Assembly (NCBI RefSeq): GCF_044704955.1
Contig: NW_027252549.1
Coordinates: 248,001 to 312,000, forward strand
From: Pristiophorus japonicus
Taxonomy: Eukaryota
Direction: 5' to 3'
DNA: 64,000 nt
Shown: piece after piece, positions 7,850 to 57,374 of the stretch
Numbering within the stretch: position 1 is the first letter of the stretch
Layout of the letters: every line of letters starts with the position of its first letter
The notes under the pieces: model-generated
Database searches by the model: none
What the model saw: only the letters and a program-made list of their open reading frames with translations
Told to the model about the DNA's origin: nothing
Made by a program: the position numbers and the translations under genes

Positions 7850-9290
7850 TCTCTATTAGTGTGAGGCTCAATAATAGTTTGAGGGGCTGTATTAATTTGA
7901 AGGGCTGCATTAGTTTCAGTTTCTCTAATAGTTTGAGGTGTATTATTTTAGGTGGCTGTATTTGTTTGAGGTTCTCATATTGGTTTGAGTTTCTTTCATA
8001 GTTTGAGGTTGTATATTAGCTTGAGTTTCTATAAATGGTGGAAAAGTTATATTATTTGACGCTGCTGTATTTATATGAGATTCAGTATTAATTTGAGGGT
8101 CTTTATCAGTTTGAGGGGCTGTAGTATTTTGAGGTTCTCTAGTAGTTTGCGGTTACCTATTAGTTTGAGGATCTTTATTGTCTTAGGGGCTGTATTTGTT
8201 TCACGTTCACTATTAGTTCCAGGGGCTGTATTAGTTTTAGGGACTGTATTAGTTTGAGGGGCTGTATTAGTTTGAGGGAATGTATTAGTTTGAGGGAATG
8301 TATTAGTTTGAGAGTCTGTATTAGTTTGAGGGGTTGTATTAGTTTGAGGGACTGTATTAGTTTGAGGGGCTGCATTAGTTTCAGGTTTTATATTAGTTTG
8401 AGTTTCTGTATTCGTTTGAGTTTCTCTATTAGTTTGGGTTACTCTATTATTTTTAGTTTCTCTATTAGTTTGAGTTTCTCTAATAGTTTGAGGGACTGTA
8501 TTAAATTGATGGGCTGTGTTAGGTTAAGTTTCTCTTTTAGTCTGAGGTGCTGTCTTTGATTGGGCTGTCTTATTTTGATGTTTGATATTAATTTCATGTT
8601 TATTATTACTTTGAGGGACTGTATTAGTTTGAGTCTCTCGATTTGTTTTGAATATTTGTATTATTTTGATCCTCCCTCGTAGTTTAAGTTTCTCTATTAG
8701 TTAGAGTGGATTATTTTGAGGGCCCCTATTAATTTTTGAACATTAGTTTCAGCTTCTCTCTGAGTTGATTTTCAATATTAGTGTGAGTTTCGCGAATAGT
8801 TTAGTGTCTCTGTTAGTTTGAGGGTCTGTATTAGTTTTAGTTTCTTTATTATGTTGAGGGTCCGTGTTATTCTGAGGTTCTCTATAGATTTATTAAAAAT
8901 TCGTTTGATATTCTTTACTGGTTTGAGGTTCTCTATTTCTTCGAGGTTCTCTTTTAGTTTGATGTTATTTTTCGCTTGAGGGGATGTATTAGTTTTAGTT
9001 TTAGTTTGAGGTACCATGTAATTTTAAAGGGTTGTTTTAGTTTGAGGTTATCTTGATTAGAGGGGCTGTACTAGTTGGAGATTCTCTATTAGTTTGATGT
9101 ACTGTATTATTTTGAGTGTCTGTATGATGAGAAGTGCTGTATTAGTTTGCATTGTTTTTGCTGTATGAGATTGTGGTGCTGTATTATTTTTAGGTAATCT
9201 ACGAGTATGAAGCACTGCCTGTGTATGAGCTGTTGTATGGGTATGAGAGGCTTAATTAATATGAGGGCCTGTATTAGTTTGAGGACTATC
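7850..9290. repeat. 18-bp minisatellite (consensus ~GAGGGGCTGTATTAGTTT), purest at 8220-8400 and decaying outward
   Basis: Repeated TATTAGTTTGAG at 18-nt spacing. The minus strand translates as (LKLIQP/S)n in short ORFs. Confidence 0.9.
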
Positions 9291-9439: not shown

Positions 9440-9780
9440 ACCCCCATTCTGGCACAGCAGCTCTGAGAGAGAAACTCTAACATTGGGAATGTAATTACTG
9501 AATATCGACAGTTAAAGCAGTCACCCACATCACAGAGTGCAGTAGAGCAGCCCTGAGAGAGAAACTCTAACATTGGGAATGTAATTTCTGAATATCGACA
9601 GTTAATGAAGTAACCCACATCACAGAGTGCAGGAGAACAGCCCTGAGAGAGAAACTCTAACATTGGGAATGTAATTTCTGAATAGCGACAGTTAAAGCAG
9701 TCACCCACATCACAGAGTGCAGTAGAGCAGCCCTGAGAGGGGAACTCCAACATTGGGAATGTAATTACTGAATGGCCACA
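9440..9780. repeat. 90-bp tandem repeat, about 3.7 highly similar copies
   Basis: AAACTCTAACATTGGGAATGTAAT recurs at about 9472, 9562, 9652 and 9742. Confidence 0.92.
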
Positions 9781-10067
9781 GCAGAGTAATGGACATCACC
9801 TGAAACAATATGCGATTCCCCAGTTTGGCCTGATGGTTTTTGAAACAATAGCCCTATATGCTTGGAGAAAACAGCTGGAAAATTTCATAAGTTAATTAAC
9901 ATGCGCAGAATTGTCCAGTCTTTGGGATTTCCAATCTGAATCTCAGCAGTAAATATATCCGTGAACAACAGGGAATTAAATCGGCTGTGGTAATTTGTTT
10001 GTTCAAGGTTTTAAAATAACTATTTTGATCGATGTTGCAACCTCAATGTCCCCGTGGAGAGACCGCA

Positions 10068-10083
10068 GGGTATAACTTAAAGG
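10068..10083 (+). promoter_or_regulatory. Possible TATA-like element upstream of GPCR exon 1
   Basis: GGGTATAACTTAAAGG lies about 90 nt 5' of the ATG at 10163. Positional inference only. Confidence 0.25.
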
Positions 10084-10162
10084 CGCTGGAATTTTACCAC
10101 ATCAGAGTATAATTCAGGGAGATTGCCTGCAGCACAAAGGGGCTCATCGCTTCACACAGAAA

Positions 10163-10226
10163 ATGCTTCCAATTGAACTTGCCAAGAAAATATGCGACAC
10201 TTTCATTGCAGTCATTGGTGTTCCTG
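10163..10226 (+). CDS. Coding exon 1 of GPR139/GPR142-like class A GPCR (MLPIELAKKICDTFIAVIGVP)
   Basis: ATG in AAAATGC context, open frame encoding the first half of TM1, ending CCTG|GTAAGT (consensus donor). The phase-1 join to TG at 16315 restores the TM1 motif IGVP-V-NLVAIVIL. Confidence 0.85.
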
Positions 10227-10549
10227 GTAAGTGACTATAACTATTGAAGTTGTGCAAAACTGTGTTTGAGCTGGTCTCTGGTTTTGCTCTGTGACTGATA
10301 ATGTTACATCCTTGACTAGTGGTCACCGGTATAGACACATGATCGGTGAATTCATCCCGTTCAGTCAAATGGCCTGTATAAACACTGCGGTTTGATTCAA
10401 TTGCTCCATCTGAACATAAATTGTGTGTTTAACCAACAGGCCGATTGTTTTATCAAGATATTTTCTTTCGTGGAATATTGTGTACTTTTCAATCAGTCCT
10501 TACTCCGCGCAACTATCTGAGAGCAGGTATTAGTATGAATGTCGATCAC

Positions 10550-11158
10550 AGTGGGATTTACTGAGTGTGAGTCTCTACCCGGCGTGGAACATGATACCCC
10601 AGTAATCATGTAATGCTGGGAGTGTCTCTCACTGTACGATGTCCTGAGAATTGATCATTAACCGGTGTGGAACACCGTTCACCAGTGACCATTTATTATT
10701 GGGAATGTCCGGCTCTGTAGGATATATTGAGTGTGGGTCAATACCCGGCGTGGAACATCATACCCCAGTGATTATGTATTACTGGGAGTGTATGTCACTG
10801 TAGGATATACTGAGTGTGGATCACTAACCGGTGTGGAACACCGTACCCCAGTGACCATGTATTACTGGGAGTGTCATTCACTGTAGGATATACTCAGTGT
10901 GGTTCACTAACCGGTGTGGATCACTGTACTCCAGTGACCATGTATTACTGGGAGTGTATTTCACTGTAGGATGTGCTCAGAGTGGGTAACTAACCAGAGT
11001 GGAACACCGTACCAGAGTGACCATGTATTACTGGGAGTGTGTATCACTGTAGGAGATACTCAGTGTGGGTAACTAACCAGAGTGGAACACTGTACCCCAG
11101 TGACCATGTATTACTGCGAGTGTCTGTCACTGTAGGATGAACTCAGTGTGGGTCACTA
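10550..11158. repeat. 83-bp tandem repeat, about 7 copies, in GPCR intron 1
   Basis: ACTGGGAGTG...TCACTGTAGGATATACT..GTGTGG..CACTAACC..TGTGGAACAC.GTACCCCAGTGACCATGTATT recurs at about 10781, 10864, 10947, 11030 and 11113. Confidence 0.92.
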
Positions 11159-11995
11159 TTTCTTGTACTTCCGCTTCTGAGGCGTACCCTCGGAGTCGAG
11201 GATGCCTCGATTTCACACTACAAATTAGTTCCCTGACTGCTGAAAAGTCAAATGCATGACCTACTTTCTCTGTCACAGGAGGGGCAGACGATGGTTGAAC
11301 GAACGGGAGTGTTGGGTGCCTGGGTTGCTGCGCGTTCCTTCTGCTATCTCCGCTTTCTTCAGCTTGCTCTGGGCGATAAGACTCGAGGTGCTCTGCACCG
11401 TGCGGATGCTTTTCCTTCACTTTGGGCTGGTTTGGGCCAGGGGATTGCCAGGTGTAGACGGGGACGTTGCAATTATTCAAGGAGGTTTTGATTGTGTCAT
11501 TGTGCGTTTCCTCTACCCACCTGTGGCTCTTTTGCAATAACGAATCACCGAGTAGAGCGTTTGCTTTTTGAATCTCATGTCAGGCACACCGACGATGTGG
11601 CCGGACAACAGAGCGGCTCGACTGTGGCCAATGATTCAATGCTGGGGATGGTGCCCTGACCGAAAACACTGACGTTGGTGCAACACTCCGGCCAATTAAT
11701 TTAGAGGAAATTGTGGAGGCAGCATTGGTACTTCTCCAGTGCTTTGAGGTGCCTGCTGTAAATATTCCATTTCTCTGAAGCAGATAGGCAGGCGGGTATC
11801 ACTCCTGCCTTGTGGACCATGAGTTTGGTCCGGGGTTTGATGTCCTGGTCTTCAATCACTTGCTTCCTCAGGCATCCGAAGGCAGTACTGGCACACTGAA
11901 GGCAATTTTGGACTTTGCCATCAAAGTCTGCCCTTGTTGACAGTCGGCTCCCGAGGTATGGAAAATGGTCCACATTATACAGTGTACAGCCCAGT
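11159..11995 (-). mobile_element. RTE-clade LINE 3' fragment
   Basis: DHFPYLGSRLS...AFGCLRKQV..TKLMVHKA (RTE RT C-terminus), plus an RTE-like 3' UTR ending near 11160. Confidence 0.88.
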
Positions 11996-12415
11996 AATCC
12001 CGAGCTTCCCTGAAGCGGATGGCGAATTTCCCTGCGCCTATCCCCGCTGATACATTCTGAGTGCCCAATTTACAATTTAATTCACTCGCCATTCACACTT
12101 GAAGTCCTCTCGCCCTCACCGGGTTTGGGCTGGGAATGAAAACCCTTGCAGGTTGCTGATCCTGTTCTTGACGCCAGTGCTCTACCCCTGCTGAAAGTAC
12201 AAGTGCTGGACCGCTGGTCTGAACAATGTTCCATCTCCACACTCCAATGGTATCGGTATGGGAGCTCAGATGGTTCCTAGCTCTGCTGCCTTTTCTTGGG
12301 ATACAAGGAACCTTCGCTGTTCCAATTCTACTCCGGTCCCCTCCTTCACATATTGTTCATGTACATTGATGACTGTGTTCGCGCAATTTCCTTTTCTTGC
12401 CATGAACTGGAAAAT

Positions 12416-12944
12416 GTCCTAACTCGCACAAAGTCATGTTCACCCATCACCTCACCCCTATGCTTTCTGTCCTACATTGGCTGCCGGTTAAAGAACACCA
12501 CGATTTTGAAAATTCTCATCCTTGTTTACAAATCTCTCCATGGCCTTGCACCTCCCTACCCCTGTACTCTTTTTTCGCCTCACAACCCCTCAAGATATCT
12601 CCGCTCTTCAAATGCTGCCCTTTCGAACATCCCTCATTATACTGCTGAACCATCGGTGGCCTTACCTTCAGTTGTTTGGGCCCTCAACTCTGGAATCCCT
12701 CCCTGAACCTCGAAGCTTATCTAACCATCTTTCCATTTTAAAGACGCTCCTAAAATCAACCCTTTTAGCAAGCTTTTGGTCATATGCCTCAATATCTTCT
12801 TTTTTGTCTTGTTGTCATATGTATCTGTGTTGTCCTATTAAAACTGCTTTGAAGCGCCTTGGGACATTTAACTAGTTTAAACGTGCGATGTAAATAAAAG
12901 TTATTGTTATTATTATTAATAATATTAATTATAATTATTATTAT
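12416..12944 (+). mobile_element. L2-like LINE 3' end inserted in the Penelope RT
   Basis: HWLPV, KILILVYKSLHGLAPPY, PSRYLRSS motifs. Ends AAATAAAAG followed by a (TTA)n tail. Confidence 0.85.
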
Positions 12945-13439
12945 GTGATCAACCTTGCTTCAAATTTGCGACACACTCTTTCCTTCACATGCTCAGTCTG
13001 TCACTCCCTTCCCTTCCTTAACATGTCTAAGTCGATTTCCAAGGATCCGCTCTCTACCAATATCTCCTATAATGTGGCCGACTCTGACAGCTACCTTGAT
13101 TATATGACTTCTCACCCAGCTTGCTGGACGGACTCTATTATAGTGTACAAATGTTGCTGCCTGCGTTGCATTTGTTCCGATGAAGCCACTTGCCACACCA
13201 GTGCTTACAACATGTCTTCCTTTTTCTGAGCTGAGGATACCCATCCTCTGTGGTCATGATCCTGTGAGCCTGTAACCTAGCGTGGAGTGGGTAGGAGAGG
13301 AGGGGCGAAGCAGAATCATGAAGACTGAGACCAGTTGAGTCAATACCTCGGGCTGAGAGACTACAGTGGTGGGATGATTCCCCGGTCCCCCACACCTTTC
13401 TGCAGTGAAAATGCTCTGTTCAGAGAATTTTCACCAGGC

Positions 13440-13965
13440 TGTTTCCTGAGATGAAGGTGTTGACTTATGACGAAAGGATGAGTAGGTTGAGCATATATTC
13501 GTTGGAGTTTAGAAGAATGTGCGGTGATGTTATTGAAACGTATAAGATTCTGAGGTGGCTCGACAGGGAAGATGCAGAGAGGGTATTTCCGCTCATGGGG
13601 AATCTAGAACTTGGGGACATAGTTATAGAATGTTCCTGATGTTGGGGAAGTCCAGAACCAGGCGACATAGTCTAAGGATCAGGGGTAAGCCATTTAGGAC
13701 CAAGATGAGGAGACACCTCCTCACTCAGAGAGTTGTTAACCTGAGGGATTCACTACCGCAGAGAGTTGTTGATGCACTTGATTGGATATATTTAAGAGGG
13801 AGTTAGGTATGGCCCTTACATTAAAGGGATCAAGGAGTCTGGAGGGAAAACAGGAAAGGAGTACTGAGGGAATGATCAGCCATGATCTTATTGAATGATG
13901 GTGCAAGCTCGAAGGGCCCAATGGCCTAATCCTGCCTCTATATTCTACGTTTCTATGTTTCTATG
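13440..13965 (+). mobile_element. Two fused CR1/HER1 3' fragments
   Basis: YSLEFRRMCGDVIETYKIL, then a restart at MFLMLGKSRTR. Ends in a TTTCTATG tail. Confidence 0.9.
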
Positions 13966-15599
13966 CACAGGGTCCTCAATCCAATTTCCCGAATTTATCC
14001 ACAGCCGAGGATTCCCCACCATTGTGGTGGACAAGGCACACCACAGTGTCAATCCAATTTGCTGCGTTACTTTCATCGCCCCTGATCGTCCCTGCTCGAA
14101 CCATGATCGGGTCCCCGTGTCCTCACCTTCGTCTCAACCAATCCCCACATTCAATTGCTGTTCCTTCCTTCTTTGTCCCACCACCAGACATATCCCCTTT
14201 CAGCATTCCGAATGGATCGGTCCCTCCACGACAACCTGGATCACTCCTGAATCGCCCCCAACAGTTCTCCCCAACCACCGGACCTTCAATGCAAAACCTA
14301 GAAAATGCAACACCTGCCCTTTCACATCCATTCATTCCATCGTCCAGGGCCTTCAATCTGAAACAGTAATCGACTTGTATTTCCTCCAATGTAGTATACT
14401 GTATTCGCTGTTCACGATGATGTATCCTGTCGATTGGGGAGGATTAAACAGAGATTGTGTGATTACATTACTGAACTTCTCCATTGTGTCTGGATAAGTG
14501 TCTCTCTCCCTCTCTCTGTCTCACACTCCCCTGGTCACTTGCCCCTTCAATTCTACATCCCACTCCCAGACTGACATCTCGACCTTCGACCTTCTAAAAT
14601 GTTCCCCTTTGTAACTCAATGGGGAACAGCACCACATGTTTCCATTATCCATTTATTGCAACCCGGTCATAAAACTGAGATTAATCTTTTCAGATCATTG
14701 CGACCGCACCCGCTTCCTCAGACAGCATGTGCTGGTAATGAAGGATGTCTTCAGTAGAGCCACTGGGAGTGGAGGAGGTGGGTGCTGGTGCTTGGGATCA
14801 CCTCTCGGTGTACGGCAGGCCTTCTTGGATCTACTGACCTTTCTCCACCAAATTCCTGGGCCATGGGAGCCTTCTGATCTTTGCCAGATTTACCTTGCTC
14901 CCCACCGTCCCACCGCCCCATTCTGTTATCCTGCTCTATCCACTTACATCTCCTCTGGACTCATTTCCTGTTCCTTTAGTTGTCCCATGTGTCTTACACC
15001 ATCATCCCTTTTGTCGTTGAATCACTCCTGCCCACCGTCCCATCAAAGACCTTCAACTTTGTTCTTTCCTCCTCCTAACACAACTTTCTCTTCCTCTGAC
15101 ATTGCCTTAAAACTGTTCATCTCTCGCGGATTCCAGTATTGAAGTAAGGTTATCACCTGAAACGTTAAATCTATTTCTCTCTCCACAGATGCTGCCTGCC
15201 ACACTGAGTGTATTTAGCTTTCTCTGTATTTTATCAGATTTACCACCGTTAGTATGGGGGTAGTCTAAGCAGAGGGAGAGAGAGGGAGAGCGTGTGGAGC
15301 CTTGGTGAAGGAACACCTGCAGCTCCTGGCCCACAACCGGGTCCGTGAAGGCACTTCCATTGCCCCCGAAGCAGTCCTCGGCTCACTTTAGCTACCGGTT
15401 ATCCCGAGGCCTGGGAAACACAGCCAACCAGAGTTAAACCCATAAAATATGTTAAACCCGTAAAATAGTTTAAATCTGCAGCTACCATCCGCATTAGAAC
15501 ATTTATATTGCCCACACGCCCGCTGGGATGGCTCGGTTCCTTCCCACTGCCCCGTCGCTGCTAAACTCGGAAGCAGTGGGTTGGAAGTAGGTTAGGTTA

Positions 15600-16168
15600 T
15601 AGAAACATAAAAACATAGAAAATAGGTGCAGGAGTAGACCATTCGGCCCTTTGAGCCTGCAGCGCCATTCAATGAGTTCATGGCTGAACATGCAACTTCA
15701 GTACCCCATTCCTGCTTTCTCGCCATACCCCTTGATCCCCCTAGTAGTAAGGACCTCATTTAACTCCTTTTTGAATATATTTAGTGAATTGGCCTCAACA
15801 ACTTTCTGTGGTAGAGAATTCCACAGGTTCACCACTCTCTGGGTGAAGAAGTGTCTCCTCATCTTGGTCCTAAATGGCTTACCCCTTATCCTTAGACTGT
15901 GAACCCTGGTTCTGGACTTTCCCAACATCGGGAACATTCTTCCTGCACCTAACCTGTCCAGTCCCGTCAGATTTTTAAACGTTCCTGTGAGATCACCTCT
16001 CATTCTTCTGAACTCCCGTGAATACAAGCCCAGTTGATCCAGTCTTTCTTGATAGGTCAGTCCCGCCATCCCGGCAATCAGTCTGGTGAAGCTTCGCTGC
16101 ACTCCCTCAATAGCAAGAATGTCCTTCCTCAAGTTAGGAGACCAAAACTCTACACAATACTCCAGGTT
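15600..16168 (-). mobile_element. HER1-like LINE 3' fragment (relatively young)
   Basis: Open minus frame LEYCVEFWSPNLRKD...GIKGYGEKAGMGY. Reverse-complement tail AGAAACATA at 15601. Confidence 0.95.
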
Positions 16169-16314
16169 GGGATGATATACTTTACATGGTAACCCCTGAC
16201 CCGACGTCCACGCGGCCAATTTTGTGCTAAATCACAGGTCATACTGTCTGGGCTCAGTCATCGAGAATGTGTGACCAATAATTGACCCTTTCTTTTCCCT
16301 TCTGTTTATTACAG

Positions 16315-17225
16315 TGAATTTAGTGGCGATTGTGATCCTGTCCCGGGGAAAGTGCGGGCTGTCCACCTGCACCACTCGCTACCTGGTGGCCATGGCAGCG
16401 GCGGATCTACTGGTGGTCATCACTGAGATCATACTACGGTGGATCAGTTGGTATTATTTCCCGGGATCTTTGCTGGATATCACCCCTGTGTGTAGTGTTA
16501 TCAATCTCCTGTCCCGTGTAACCACAGATTGTTCTGTCTGGTTCACCGTCACTTTCACCTTTGATCGATTTGTGGCAATTTGTTGGCAGAAGCTGAAAAC
16601 CAAATATTGCACCGGGAGAACTGCGGCTGTGGTCCTGGCAACAAGCTGCATTCTGCTCTGCTCAAAAAACATTCCGCACTACTTTACAATTGAACCCTGG
16701 GAGATAATCGACAATGTTCCGTGGTACTGTTCCTTCATCCCAGCCTATTTTACTGAGCCCGGATGGGTGGGATTTGACTTGTTTGATACGGTTGTAACCC
16801 CACTGCTCCCATTCGCTGTAATATTGTTGCTCAACGCACTGACAGTCAGATACATTTTAGTGTCCAGTCGAGTCCGGAAGGGACTGAGGGGTGAGAACAA
16901 GGCGGGGAATGGCAGTGACCCAGAGATGGAGAGCAGGAGGAAGTCTGTCATTTTACTCTTCACTATATCCGGCAGCTTCATACTGCTGTGGCTGATAAAT
17001 GTTATAGATGTATTTTATTATAGCATTACAGGAATAAATCCCAGTGATTACAGTGATTCTTTATATCAATTTACAGAGGTCGGATTTATACTGCGGAATT
17101 TAAGTTGCTGCACAAACACATTTATTTACGGGGTGACACAGTCCAAGTTCAGAGAGCAGTTGAAGAGCGCGGTGAAATATCCGGTTACCTCAATTGTACA
17201 ATTAATTAATAAACAGAACAACTGA
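16315..17225 (+). CDS. Coding exon 2 of GPR139/GPR142-like class A GPCR (TM1 end to TM7 and C-tail); spliced product 324 aa
   Basis: Polypyrimidine tract plus TACAG acceptor ending at 16314. Uninterrupted frame with hydrophobic helices, MAAADLLV (TM2), FTFDRFVAIC (DRY-like), PLLPF (TM5), NTFIY (NPxxY variant) and SKFREQL helix 8. Confidence 0.93.
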
Positions 17226-17669
17226 TCGCAGCCCAGATGCAGGTCTCAGTGTTTGCAGTCCAGGAATGTAATATTTAGCAGCAGAATTCCTTCCATTGAA
17301 TTACACCAGGAATGGCTGGTGATCTGATCATACACCCAGCGGCGGGACAAGCACTGTCTGTTGGAGACGGCATATTTCTGATTGAAAATTCCCACATGAT
17401 CTTTTGGGAAATACCACACGAGCATTCTCTCTGAGCTCTTCTGTAACGGGTCACTTCAGCTATTTAGTGCAGCTAGACATTGCATCTTCCAGAGTGAGAG
17501 GCTCGACAATACGTAGGCAGGAAGGGCTGAGCTCCAGTTCAGTGGGTTATATTATATACAACATAGAGCAGATAATCAGGCTATTCGGCCCAACCAGTGT
17601 GTGCTGGTGAGTATGCTCAGCACCAGATTAGAAAGTGAGAAACTGAATGAGGCAGAGGTTCAATGTATG

Positions 17670-17800
17670 ACGTGCCAGACTGAGCAGGAGGTCCAGAACA
17701 TACACACTGCGCACTTACAGTGAGAAGAGGTCTTACATCGACTTACCAAGCACACCTGCCTTCGGAAACTGCGCTTCCACAAAGTGGTTATCACTGAAAT
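17670..17800 (+). mobile_element. 5' fragment of Harbinger nuclease ORF (duplicate of about 22290-22431)
   Basis: Near-identical to the start of the Harbinger nuclease region at 22290. Truncated by a CR1 tail at about 17802. Confidence 0.7.
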
Positions 17801-17801
17801 T

Positions 17802-18795
17802 AAACATAAGAACATAAGATTTAGGAAGAGGAGTAGGCCATCTAGCCCCTCGACCCTGCTCCGCCATTCAACAAGATCATGGCTGATCTGGCCGTGGACT
17901 CAGCTCCACTTACCGGCCCCCTCCCCGTAATCCTTAATTCTCTTATTGGTTTATAATCTATCTATCTGTGATTTGAATACATTCAATGAGCTAGCCTCAA
18001 CTGCTAACTTGCGCAGAGAATTCCACAGATTCACAACCCTCTTGGAGACGAAATTTCTTCTCAACTCGGTTTTAAATTGGCTCTCCCGTATTTTGAGGCT
18101 GTGCCCCCTAGTTCTAGTCTCCCGAACCAGTGGAAACAACCTATCTGCCTCTATCTTGTCTATCCCTTTCATTATTTTAAATGATTTTATAAGATCACCC
18201 CTCATCCTTCTGAACTCCAACGAGTAAAGACCCAGTCTACTCAATATATCATCATAAGGTAACCGCCTCATCTCCGGAATCAGCCTAGTCAATCGCCTCT
18301 GTACCCCCTCCAAAGCTAATATATCCTTCCTTAAGTAAGGTGACCAAAACTGCAGGCAGTACTCCAGGTGCGGCCTCAACAATACCCTGTACAGTTGCAG
18401 CAGGACCTCCCTGCTTTTGTACTCCATCCCTGTCGCAATGAAGGCCAACATTCCATTCGCCTTCCCGATTACTTGCTGCAGCTGCAAACTAACATTTTGG
18501 GATTCATGCACAAGGACCCCCCAGGACCCTCTGCACCGCAGCATCTTGTAATTTATCCCCCATTCAAATAATATTCCCTGTTACTGTTTTTTTTACCCAA
18601 GGTGGATGACCTCACATTTTCCAGACATTGTATTTCATCTGCCAAACGTTAGCCCATTCGCTTAACCTATCTAAATCTCTTTGCAGCCTCTCTGTGTCCT
18701 CTACACAACCCACTTTCCCACTAATCTTTGTGTCATCTGCAAATTTGGTTCACTATACTCTGTTCCCTCTTCACGGTCATCTATGTATATTGTAT
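17802..18795 (-). mobile_element. CR1 LINE 3' fragment, (TTCTTATG)-tail subfamily
   Basis: ORF 17951-18544 LLRPHLEYCLQFWSPYLRKD...TRGHSLKIR. Tail AACATAAGAACATAAG at the left end. Confidence 0.93.
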
Positions 18796-21234: not shown

Positions 21235-21377
21235 GCGAGGAGGATGCTATGAGGCTGCAGAGTGACTTGGATAGGTTAGGTGAGTGGGCAAATGCATGGC
21301 AGATGCAGTATAATGTGGATAAATGTGAGATTATCCACTTTGGTAGTAAAAACAGAGAGACAGACTATTATCTCAAT
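21235..21377 (+). mobile_element. Short internal HER1 RT fragment
   Basis: Near-identical to 2853-2995 (GCGAGGAGGATGCTATGAGGCTGCAGAG...GACTATTATCT). Confidence 0.9.
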
Positions 21378-21860
21378 CCCAGGCTTTTATACTGAGCACA
21401 GATAGCTGGCATTTGACTTGTTTGATACGGTTTTAACCCCACTGCTCCCATTCGCTGTAATTTTGTTGCTCAATGCTCTGACAGTCACACACATTTTAGT
21501 GGCCAGTCAAATCCGGAACGGACTGAGGGGTGAGACCAAGGGGGAGAATTGCAGTCACCCAGAGATGGAGAGCAGGAGGAGGTCTGTGATTTTACTCTTC
21601 ACCATATCCGGTAGCTTCATACTGCTGTGGCTGGTATATGTTATAGAATTCTTATATTACAGCATTAGAGGAACAAATCCCGATTATTACAATTATTCTT
21701 TATAAACCTTTGGACAAGTCAGAGATATACTGCAGCATTTAAGTTGCTGCACAAATATATTTATTTATGGGGTGACCCAGTCCAATTCAGAGAGTAGTTG
21801 AAGAGCGGTGAAATATCCGGTGACCTCAATTATTCAATTAATTAATAACAGAACAACTGA
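21376..21860 (+). pseudogene. 5'-truncated pseudogene paralog of the GPR139-like receptor (ECL2 end to C-tail)
   Basis: Colinear with 16737-17225. In-frame TAG (about 21403), TAA (21703) and small deletions after 21780. Confidence 0.92.
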
Positions 21861-22289
21861 GCACAGCCCAGAGGCGGCGCGCAGTGTTTCCAGTCCAGAC
21901 ATGTAATATTTAGCCCCAGACTTCCATCCACTGAATTACACCAGGAATGGTTGGTGATCTGATAATACACCCAGCGACGCGGCACGCACTATGCTTCAGA
22001 CACGGCAATATTTCTGATTGACAATTCCCACATAGTCTTTTGGGATAGATTGTTGCATTCTGTCTGAGCTCTTCTATAAAGTGTCACTGCAGCTATTTAG
22101 TACAGCTATATTTTGCATCTTCCAGATTGAGAGGCTCGACAATAGGTAGGCAGGCAGGACTGGGCTAGAGTTAAGAGGATTATATTATATAGAACATAGA
22201 GCAGAGATTCAGGCTATTCGGCCCAACCAGTCTGTGCTGGTGTGTATGCTCAGCACTAGATTAGAAAGTGAGAAACTGAATGAGGCAGA

Positions 22290-25200
22290 GTTGCAATGTA
22301 AACATGCCAGACTGAGCAGGAGTTCCAGACATACACACCCCGCACTTACAGGGAGAAGCGGCCTTAGCTCGACTTACCAAGCACACCTGCGTTCGGAAAC
22401 TGTGCTTCCACAATGTGGTTATCACTGAAATATGCCATCCCATCAGGGCAGATATGCAGTCTGCCAGCACATTCATCACACCACTGTCCGCCGAGGTCAT
22501 GTTCACCACGGCACTATCGTTCTACGCGTCCGCTACGGTTCAGGCCTCTGCGGTAGATATTTTCCCTCAGTCTCACCATGCCATACATTGCTGCGACAGA
22601 ACGGTGTGTAGGATGGAATTTATCTGCTTCCCTGTGACGAGCGAGGCTTAGACTGACAGCGCTGATACTTTCTACAGCATTGCTAAGTTCCCCAAGCTAA
22701 AGGGATCAATACAATGTACGCACATCGCAATGCGGACACCTTCTCATGACCGAGAGATTTTTCGCAACAGAAAAGGATTTCACTCCCTGAAGGTACAACT
22801 AGTTGCGGACCACAACCAGATAATTATGACAGTGAATGCCACATATCCGGGCAGCTTCGATGAGGCTCATATCCTCCGTGAGAGAGCTGCATCAGAAATG
22901 TTTACCAGTCAGCTACAAATACAATGCTGGATGCTTGGTGACAAACGTTATGGCCCAGCCACCTGGCTATGACTCCCCAGCATGACACGCGCACCGAGGC
23001 CGAGAAGAGATACAACGAGAGCCACAGAGCTGTACGCAATGTGAACCAGAAAATCATTAGCGTGTGTAAGCAGCTCAGGAGGGGAGCTACAAGACAACCT
23101 TGATCAGGTAGCTCAATTCCTGGTCGTGTGCTCCATGCTGCACAACCTGGCTATCAGGAGGGGACAAGAATTGGCACAATGGACTGATGGTCCTGATCAG
23201 GAGAGAGAGGAAGAGGAGGACGAGGAGCTAACTTCGGGCCAGAAAGTCAGGGTGACGATGCACCCGTTCCCACGCCCACCTCCAGATTTGCCTGAAACGT
23301 TGCTATTATTGGCAAAGCTGATACACCACTGTGTGTGCAGCTCACACAGCAATGTTGGGCATCATATTGGTGCCAGTTAATGTTTAAGTTAATTCAAGTT
23401 AATTGTAATTATATCCTTTTATGATAGGCAATCAGCAGTGTGTGACTGTCCAGCTATCGAAGACAATGTGCATCAAGGTTATGCTAAATAAAAAACATTT
23501 AACACTACAATTATTCTGAAATCATGTGTCACTGGCAATAACACCCCAACCCACTCCACCCTCATTTTTCAAACATTGACATAAATCAAGTCGTCAACAT
23601 GTCCAGCAACACAGAACACAAATGCAAACCAACAGGTTGGCCCCCTCCGCCCACAAATTACAACAAATTGCATACACCTAGATGGAGATATAACAAAGCT
23701 ATCACGTGCGGACATGCACTTCATTTTCCTTCCCCCCTCGCATTCTTCTGCGCACCTCTACCCCTTCCCCTCCTCAGTCCGTGCCGCCTAGCTGAGGTGC
23801 TCTGCAGACGGTTCCACCTTGGGGTGGATGAAGGCAGAGCCGCTGGTCGCACGGATCCGGGAGCGGAACTACCGAGGTGGCAACATTCTCGGATCCAGAA
23901 AAAGGAACTTGCTCCAGCTTCTCATGTGTCCTTGGCACTGGTGGTGTGGACTGCTGCGCTCCGGCACCTCTGGGAGGCCTGTGTCACGAGTGTTCCTGGC
24001 TAACACCTCCAGGGCCTATGCCATCCATGGAACGTTCTCTGTCAATGTGCTAGAGATGCTGGCCAGCTGTCGGGTTATGCCTCCCAATGCCTCTAGCAAC
24101 TGGTCACCTATGTCTACAGTCTTCCTGCGCAACTATACCATCCCTCCTGCGGAGGCCTGTGGCGAAGTGCTTGGGCACGGCACATTCAGAGTGAAGTTAG
24201 GAATGGCGGGAGGCGCACTAGTTGGTCTTGTGTTGGAATGTCTTCTCGAGCGCGGCAATGCAGACTCATCAAAGACGGTGCTTTCATCCGTGAAGTCTAG
24301 ACCCAGCTGATTGACAGGCGAGAAGCAGTGCTCCTCAGCATCAGATGTAGGATCGTCTGGCTATTACGGTCCCGTACCCCAACTCCTGGTCTCTGTCATC
24401 TTGCCCTAGGACACGCTACTGGCTGAGCTGCAAAATATAAAAAAAAAGGTTATTCGAGGAGTAGAGAGTGCTAGGGTCACAAAGTCATTCCAACGCTACA
24501 CAATCCATATTTACGACAAAAACACCACCGCTATCAACTTCACCACAGACGTCACATTTCATGCCCATCAGCACATTCTGTGCTGCAATGATTCTCACGA
24601 GGCCATCATTTTTTTAAAGATAATTTGAGATACCAGCTATCATATATTATTGTTCAGATATGAGTGCGTGTTGAATCAATTGATCTTGCATCAGGCAACG
24701 GTGTATAATTTACCCACGTGGCATCACTTCAGGGTCTGAAGCTGCTTCCATGTCCGTCTCGGGTTCTTCCCCATGAGTACGAGCACCCGCTTCTCCATCT
24801 CAGTGATGTCGCTGGTGACTGGTGGCGCCCACCCGTTCGCCTCTGCTCAGACCTAATCGTCAATAGTTTCTTCTGCAAAAGGTGACAGGATGACATGGCA
24901 TGAGAGCATTGTGTGATATCTTCTCTCGGTAATATCAGAGAGACAGATACAACACATAACCGACAGATGTAATCATGAGTATTATGATAATTATCATTCG
25001 TGACATAAAGACGTGCGCCGTGACGCAGGCTTTGAGTACAACTCACTGCTCTGGCCCGCTTCAGTTTCCATAGCGTGCTGGCTTGCCTTCTCCAGTCCCT
25101 CCATTATAGTCACGAAATTCGAAAATCTGGCTTGTAACAGCTAATTATTTTTTCCCAATTTGCTGTAAAGTTCGAAACACTCCCTCTTTCCTCGCAAAGT

Positions 25201-55653: not shown

Positions 55654-57374
55654 AATATCAGGCGTTATTGAGCTCTGAGGCTGTAAAGTCTCAACTGCAT
55701 GTTATCGTTTCATGACTTTTACAATTAAATAAAGGGATATTTCATCACATTCATCCACTGCTCCTGGAACCTAGTCAGTGTCACGACATAAATACCAGTA
55801 TTTGTGCAGTAACTCACAGTGACAGCATTCTATGATTATGTCCCCGAGTTCAAATCTCGCCTATCAGTGGAAACATCCTCTCTGCATCCACGTTATCAAG
55901 TTCCCGAATTTCCTTATATGCTTCGATATGATCGTGTCTCATTCTTCTGAATTTCAATGCGTAGAAGCCCGACGTACACAACCTTTCCTCAGATGTCACC
56001 CCCCTCATCACCGAGTGGAACCTCTCTGTGCTGCCTCCTAAGCAAGGATATCATTTTTCAAATATAGTAACCAAAACTACACGCAATATTCCTGGAGTGG
56101 CCTCACCAATACCATGTATACAAAATATCAACAAATATTAACTAAATGCAACAACTTGAACGACAGCGTGCCATTAATAACTGATTATCCCTTGGTATAT
56201 AGCAAGAATGATATTACATTTCAACGTGGTGGACACAATTAATAACTGAACATTGATACTAAATGGAACACCAACAGCTGCTAGTAGAGGATTGTAAATG
56301 TTTTGTATATCCCACATATTTTATTTTTATCTGCCCTTCCAGCAGCCACCTATCAAAATTGGTTTGCAAATCATCAGTAATGGAAGGGGGTGATGGCGAG
56401 GGAGGCACCGCCATGACTACCCTTCTGTGGGTCACTTCTGGTATCTGTGCTGGAGTCACCACGTTGATTGCGTGAGCTTACACAGTGAAGGGAGCTCCTT
56501 ACATAGAGCAGAGGGAAATCTCCAAATGACATCATTAAGCGTCACTGTAAGAGGCATTAATTACAGTCAGTGTACAAATAGACGCATTGAACCATTTCAC
56601 CACAACACTTTACTGCAACTTCATCTAGCTCACCTTATTATACACAGTTTTAAATTAAAAGTAAGATAATGTGTAATTTTTCACCAAACCATAATGTACC
56701 GAAAACTGGGCAGAGGGAACAGAATTCATCGTTCTGTTCTGAATTAAAACTGAGAACGAAAGTGGAGAAAGTGACAGAAACAAAGAGGGAATAAAAGGTG
56801 AAAAGATTTAGAGTCCCAATCTTGTCTCTGTTTTAATCGAACCCATGCCATCAGGGTAAAAATATTCCCCAAAAATAAATGTGCCTAAACTGCAATATCT
56901 GGGAGATAATCGCTGTAATGAAACAATGGGACACGCCGAAACGACACAGCTCCAGCCTTAATCCATGAATTCCATTCCGAGAGCCCGATAGATTAGAGTG
57001 GTTCCACTTCAGTCCAGGAGTTCCATTCCCGGGGTTTTCTACATTGTCTGACACTCGATCCAGAACAACAGTTTAATTCTAAAGAATTACATTACCCAGC
57101 AAAACGCCCTTTATCGAGGGGAACAATCATAAAAGGAGCAAAGGGTTGATACCAAATAATCAAAGGCAAATGCTTAAAATATTAGCCATTGAGGTAAGTA
57201 CCCTGTATATAATTCAATACTCCATGAAACGCTCTGGTTACATTGGATCCTCGCACAATCTTACTCAGATAAACGTCCCTAACTATCAACATTCTGGACT
57301 ATTCTATCATCATCCCAGTGTAAGTCCTGTTCCAACGGCAGCACATCACCAGTGAAGTTGGTGGCACATTAGTC

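Follow-up and report, generated by a model that had tools for sequence, protein, structure and literature searches.

A large and possibly chemosensory family of rhodopsin-like receptors in the shark Pristiophorus japonicus, seen from one intact gene

The window analysed here is a stretch of 64,000 nucleotides from the shark Pristiophorus japonicus (contig NW_027252549.1, positions 248,001 to 312,000, forward strand); positions below count from its first letter. It contains an intact gene for a G protein-coupled receptor (GPCR), which belongs to a very large family whose size, selection, regulation and probable role are the subject of this report. The two exons of the window gene, 10163-10226 and 16315-17225, together encode an open protein of 324 amino acids:

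10163..10226, + strand: exon 1, comprising 21 codons and one further base, with donor GTAAG in phase 1; the same exon is found in paralogues and in P0001
10227..16314, + strand: intron of 6.1 kb, just before N1.50, repeat-filled, including an 83-bp tandem array at 10546-11158
16315..17225, + strand: exon 2, from the end of transmembrane helix (TM) 1 to the stop, class A GPCR; polypyrimidine-ACAG acceptor

The model of P0001, a database protein of P. japonicus named 'probable GPR139', is identical to that of the window gene, the sole change being L6I. The window protein matches the Pfam family 7tm_1 (E 1e-21) and no other family, and an AlphaFold model of exon 2 presents a mean pLDDT (predicted local distance difference test) of 86 and a TM-score of about 0.7 to peptide GPCRs. 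The 7tm_1 match and the seven-helix fold establish the gene as a class A (rhodopsin-like) GPCR, and the open two-exon model confirms the intact receptor gene proposed in a first-pass annotation made from the letters alone. A fold search with the exon-2 model cannot place the gene any further, as GPR139 ranks 8th among near-equal peptide receptors. N1.50 is residue 23, i.e., the N-terminus is very short; sequons occur at N220 and N283 only, and two motifs read D105-R106-F107 and N289-T-F-I-Y293. The short N-terminus, its lack of a sequon, DRF and NTFIY are all present as the annotation had described them.

In order of magnitude, the family is unusual for a single genome. One DNA pattern yielded 1,290 genome matches (control 0) and a second, independent pattern yielded 1,237 (control 22). 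The overlap of the first-listed matches of the two patterns (100 and 94, with 62 in common) gives an estimate of ~1,950 copies, obtained from contigs C1-C9 only, with four likely chance matches and the matches past the common range dropped. A protein search of the genome returned 3,792 candidates, of which 130 were scored, all 73-100% identical. On contig C9, 58 family copies lie within 3.7 Mb. Exon 2 is open in 18 of 38 sampled pattern hits and broken in the other 20, counts in which one false positive and one false negative found on inspection cancel out. Given that 107 fetched copies fall into 85 clusters at 99.5% identity, up to a fifth of the copies may be haplotigs or very young duplicates, and the open copies in the genome are estimated at roughly 500-900. 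The same genome has two full-length genes of the odorant receptor (OR) type, among 17 PF13853 matches. The first-pass annotation had placed the gene in a multi-copy clade under birth-and-death turnover; the turnover is borne out by tandem clusters and many dead copies, and the clade was understated, since this genome holds at least 1,290 copies.

Close copies have flanks ~90% identical across 3.9 kb. The copies were duplicated as multi-kilobase blocks carrying promoter and intron, and they died via stops, frameshifts and deletions; they spread as segmental duplicates that also include flanking transposons. Retrotransposition was ruled out as the copy mechanism because copies retain intron, promoter and flanks. 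One copy, L184 (G000:C3767, where G000 is the genome searched), is 99% identical to the locus; relative to window 16188-17952, a deletion of 1.77 kb has removed its entire exon 2, with exon 1 and promoter kept; recombination between two CR1 ends was rejected as the cause of this deletion, given that the junction has no long homology. In four places (G000:C1937, C1478, and C90 twice) the window gene is accompanied by a neighbour at a distance of 86-94 kb; the recurring pair may reflect haplotigs or a unit of duplication no shorter than 86 kb.

Selection was studied on 43 of 60 close intact paralogues, near-duplicates being dropped, with a single tree and gene conversion left unmodelled; the ligand pocket was defined as 26 positions from a standard list. 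The omega values obtained with IQ-TREE, i.e., the ratio of nonsynonymous to synonymous rates (dN/dS), are 2.18 in the pocket, 1.37 in the extracellular loops, 1.20 in the other outer TM positions and 0.43 in the cytoplasmic half, with 0.86 overall. A counting method agrees, with a dN/dS of 1.93 [1.2-3.3] in the pocket versus 0.51 [0.39-0.66] on the cytoplasmic side, while dS is flat at 0.27-0.34 everywhere. The top selected sites include H143, S161, F162, S88, I147, R63 and T275. The ligand pockets thus diversify under positive selection, and the cytoplasmic face is spared. Among the window gene and its three nearest copies in G000, the exon-2 protein is identical: the 6 differing sites are all synonymous, and the flanks differ by ~1.3%.

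These values bear on the simplest explanation of the family, namely that one orphan gene was passively amplified in transposon-rich segmental duplications and that most copies have no function. The ~90% identical flanks of close copies, the 20 broken copies among the 38 sampled and a whole-exon dN/dS of 0.86-0.96 are all in agreement with it. Nevertheless, passive amplification is very improbable in view of the gap between cytoplasmic and pocket dN/dS (0.43 versus 2.2), of the purely synonymous changes among the four newest copies, and of a promoter kept across lineages that predate the shark-ray split. The same selection, strong in the pocket and in the second extracellular loop (ECL2), and the rapid turnover that left about half of the sampled copies dead would also suit immune sensors that detect microbial or parasite peptides on leukocytes or barrier epithelium, as in the FPR or MRGPR expansions. 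We hold this to be unlikely, although it is the strongest of the competing explanations, and its regulatory evidence is divided, as described below.

Exon 1 was located upstream of 28 of 37 divergent paralogues, which together with the window gene gives 29 promoters; their genes are 40-83% identical (median 51%) and form 9 clusters at 60% identity. A common module was located in 26 of the 29 promoters, spanning 9 clusters. Its first element, TGTTTGTT, is followed by TGACTG-N3-CTAA; next comes a T(C/G)TCACTGGA-like box, set 23 bp ahead of TATA. Of these four elements only TGACTG-N3-CTAA is missing from the window gene, where the others lie as follows:

9996..10003, + strand: TGTTTGTT, the forkhead/Sox-like box of the module
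10049..10058, + strand: O/E (EBF)-like box, degenerate; distance to TATA 22 bp, in most paralogues 23 bp
10071..10076, + strand: TATA-like box, 92 bp before ATG

AACAAAC occurs on either strand in 21 of the 29 promoters versus 1.5 expected, a count that is not independent since the promoters are related, and TATAAA occurs in 19 versus 5.6 expected. Three promoters left out of the model scored 20, 26 and 6.5, the 99th percentile of the background being 11.5; the single-copy relative L031 scored within background. A tight version of the pattern has 90 genome matches against 0 in the control, and a family exon 1 lies behind 24 of the 30 matches inspected. The O/E-like box has a mean of 2.0 mismatches to the O/E consensus YCCCNNGGGR (in the accessible text of PMC8213819) versus 4.2 in the background, its site having been picked after the motif was seen. 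In its TAAT, O/E-like box and TATA the shark module resembles OR regulatory DNA, as far as the accessible texts of PMC8213819 and PMC5608512 describe it; the latter gives a mouse Lhx2/Ebf composite probe made of TAATTG, one base, and then TCTCCAAGGA. The best shark examples are without that single spacer base. The promoter sequences make family co-regulation well supported, and the sharing of the module by distant paralogues suggests one expression domain.

The composition of the module is also relevant to the competing explanations. Forkhead plus EBF-like boxes occur in B-lineage promoters as well, which suits immune sensors, whereas no NF-kB, IRF or ETS words are found among the top enriched k-mers of the module. 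A further NKX2-like site (TYAAGTG) is present beside the forkhead box in 10 of the 29 promoters versus 7.6% in the background, a pairing that would favour a sensor for nutrients or peptides within the body, carried by gut, gill or endocrine cells. We consider such a sensor rather improbable, since a handful of internal ligands would hardly account for hundreds of pockets under positive selection; its remaining evidence comes from kinship and is treated next. As a separate observation, an NF-kB-like site, TGGGATTTCC, lies upstream of the window gene at 9924-9933, and is not among the words common to divergent paralogues.

GPR139 is the best sequence match of the window gene in the PDB, yet only at E 2e-8 (2.4e-8) and ~30% identity. 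The true orthologues are found elsewhere in the genome as single copies on C15 and C16. L046 is the sole genome match of a TM3 pattern and matches human GPR139 at E 1e-161; its only close paralogue, L048, is 57% identical, is sister to GPR139 in the tree (100/100) and is taken as GPR142. By sequence, the window gene is neither the GPR139 nor the GPR142 orthologue, in line with the earlier view that it is not a 1:1 GPR139 orthologue, and its 'probable GPR139' database label is a mislabelling. An IQ-TREE analysis of 37 rows joins the family to salamander genes (99/97) and, at the next node (100/99), to single-copy genes of shark, coelacanth and teleost; GPR139/142 fall outside this clade, with invertebrate sequences in between (93/80; 87 in a quick tree). 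In the quick tree the sister group (99) also takes in Xenopus, caecilian and sturgeon, and a protein of the chimaera Callorhinchus nests inside the family. Of the 25 hits returned by a search for the sister, 20 are amphibian clusters, each from a different named species, 1 is from sturgeon and 4 are from shark or skate. Judged from these trees and hits, the direct sister is an amphibian-plus-sturgeon gene with one cluster per species, whose Xenopus member (XP_031757816.1) is a laboratory handle on the ancestral role. The subfamilies contain both shark and ray members, and among 2,527 clusters the named homologues belong to numerous sharks, skates and rays; the sequences thus indicate that the family is chondrichthyan-wide.

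P0230, P0241, L031 and L032, single-copy genes from coelacanth, teleost and shark, group with the family and fit the description of GPR210A/B, a set of fish and coelacanth orphans related to GPR139 (Rinne et al. 2019, PMC6504862, accessible text). The likeness is by description only, with the Ensembl identifiers unmatched, and the main text of that paper has no sharks, no amphibian member and no expansion. L031 (C17) and L032 (C7) are two single-copy GPR210-like shark orphans; the former is 61% identical to the coelacanth gene, and the latter is long-branched and without W6.48.

The place of the intron acceptor and its phase 1, before N1.50, are common to the family, GPR139, GPR142 and two single-copy relatives. 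With GPR139 and GPR142 (PDB 7VUG, 9M42), orphans responsive to Trp/Phe, the window gene has in common the phase-1 intron and the proline-less TM7 NxxxY, both traits of the wider clade, as well as W6.48. Two features that the first-pass annotation had read as signs of divergence do not serve as such: GPR139 itself carries NFFLY at TM7, and an N-terminal sequon is also absent from the single-copy fish and amphibian relatives P0230, P0235 and P0241 and, in the family itself, present in just 3 of 133 N-termini. Both NTFIY and the lack of a sequon are old traits of the clade. Differences are nonetheless clear: P6.50 is lost, and the TM3-ECL2 cysteine pair and a DPEMxxRRKS loop are present in the shark family and not in GPR139. 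The GPR139 residues needed for Trp/Phe are F3x33, H5x43, W6x48 and N7x38 (accessible text of PMC5430874). At these positions the window gene has R89, D179, W247 and F279, so that F3x33, H5x43 and N7x38 become R, D and F, and the three replaced positions vary widely among 97 distinct paralogues. Because only one of the four residues (W6.48) is kept, amino-acid sensing by descent is unsupported, and the earlier analogy with GPR139 proves weak. For the internal nutrient or peptide sensor, the kinship and common intron with GPR139/142 count in favour and this loss counts against. GPR142 is a sensor of this kind in islets and enteroendocrine cells.

Among invertebrates, the nearest clusters are FMRFamide-receptor-like, and the invertebrate sex-peptide/MIP receptors are kin of the clade. 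This ancestry, together with positive selection, could indicate a role in reproductive recognition, with receptors of sperm, of the oviducal gland or for pheromone peptides, which we regard as improbable: the repertoire far exceeds known reproductive receptor sets. Atlas neighbours carry PF10324, the domain of the nematode srw and invertebrate FMRFamide-receptor-like expansions, and 6 family loci pass its cut-off; the window protein itself has no PF10324 match, and three galanin-receptor-like genes score higher on this domain. The shark family is a vertebrate expansion separate from these chemoreceptors. PF10324 also failed as a route to GPR139, the top three matches being galanin-receptor-like; by eye, L037-L039 (C16, C15 and C19) are three galanin-receptor-like paralogues.

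The reading we favour, held on sequence evidence as slightly more likely than not, is that the family is a diversifying repertoire for external chemosensation, of which the window gene is one intact unit. Each paralogue would bind a different ligand, peptide-sized to judge from ancestry and from the ECL2 hairpin with its C81-C160 pair, while all would couple to the same G protein and so give one signalling output. The shared promoter would drive all paralogues in one class of cell, for which olfactory cells or another surface chemosensory type are the most likely candidates, and the window gene likely works in a single, probably sensory, cell type. The family resembles the vertebrate chemoreceptors (OR, TAAR, V1R/ORA, V2R, FPR-rs) in its large repertoire of tandem clusters with pseudogenes, its birth and death, the short N-terminus, a diversified pocket over a conserved cytoplasmic face, and a compact shared promoter. 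It differs from them in having a coding intron and no sequence membership, as it matches Pfam 7tm_1 only; the window protein has no match to the odorant-receptor family 7tm_4 (PF13853). A bolder proposal, tentative and to our minds somewhat doubtful, is that this is a fifth vertebrate olfactory receptor family, on which sharks and rays would chiefly rely for odorants in place of barely used ORs. It would consist of hundreds of intact GPCRs derived from peptide receptors and controlled by an OR-like homeodomain/EBF promoter.

Several results weigh against a chemosensory role. The pocket dN/dS comes from a model without gene conversion, and values near 2 are typical of immune receptors as well. 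The O/E-like box is degenerate, with at most 1 mismatch in only 5 of 26 promoters, and the adjacent TAAT is exact in only ~8 of 28, with a spacer 1 bp shorter than in the mouse probe. The NKX2-like and forkhead boxes fit endoderm equally and the EBF and forkhead boxes fit B cells, which leaves the factors ambiguous. The module is absent from four V2R-like genes, six genes of another class C cluster and both OR genes; more broadly, in the 1.5 kb ahead of 14 class C genes and of the 2 OR genes, no score clearly exceeds background, although 5' non-coding exons could place their promoters beyond this span. Lastly, in six low-share runs from other species, guessed to be RNA and unlabelled as to tissue, contig ends at the acceptor look intronic and no exon 1-exon 2 joint is among the matches listed; family-like contigs are present, including a 1,827-nt contig with a depth of 285, and were not used as evidence of expression. 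On the class C genes, at least six related ones (L249-L254, G000:C7) are GPRC6A- or V2R-like by eye, the V2R-like genes proper being on C6.

No description of the expansion was found in the literature covered, which excludes subscription papers. The term 'GPR139' is absent from the supplements of PMC10620051 and PMC11406177 and from 12 of the 24 supplementary files of PMC8455134; the accessible main text of PMC10620051 has no match either, and that of PMC11979771 has no 'GPR' term, the catshark supplement with tissue expression lists being outside this scope. According to the accessible text of PMC11979771, the catshark has 2 canonical ORs and 32 V2Rs, and that of PMC8455134 describes a 'relative paucity' of GPCRs in cartilaginous fishes. 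The 1,300-2,000 copies and ~500-900 open reading frames (ORFs) of one shark contradict this picture of few receptors whatever the function of the family. If sensory, the family would explain shark olfaction despite so few known receptors, and it is likely, from the sequences, that sharks and rays hold a large overlooked set of chemical sensors.

The rest of the window has two further family traces:

21376..22431, + strand: remains of a paralogue, comprising the 3' half of exon 2 and the 3' flank
55728..55817, - strand: TM7/helix-8 remnant of another subfamily, 30 codons, 70% identical to L122/L126, E 1e-9

The former is the decayed tandem paralogue that had been reported ~4 kb downstream, and it lies beyond the coordinates of the first-pass annotation. 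It is 4.15 kb downstream of the window gene on the same strand, 86% identical in nucleotides, with 2 premature stops and 3 small deletions; its 5' neighbour resembles, by eye, a piece of a CR1 long interspersed nuclear element (LINE). Among the other window ORFs of at least 100 aa (26 of 39 scanned), 5 have LINE-type domains and 21 have no match, and a viral or mobile-element carrier of the window gene is unsupported by these 26. Tandem arrays surround exon 1 at 9456-9773 (90 bp), 10546-11158 (83 bp) and 8085-8633 (18 bp). Window segments 10102-10229 and 10271-10376, which comprise the 5' leader, exon 1 and the start of the intron, have matches of at least 80% in contigs of other species, which suggests a conserved intronic element.

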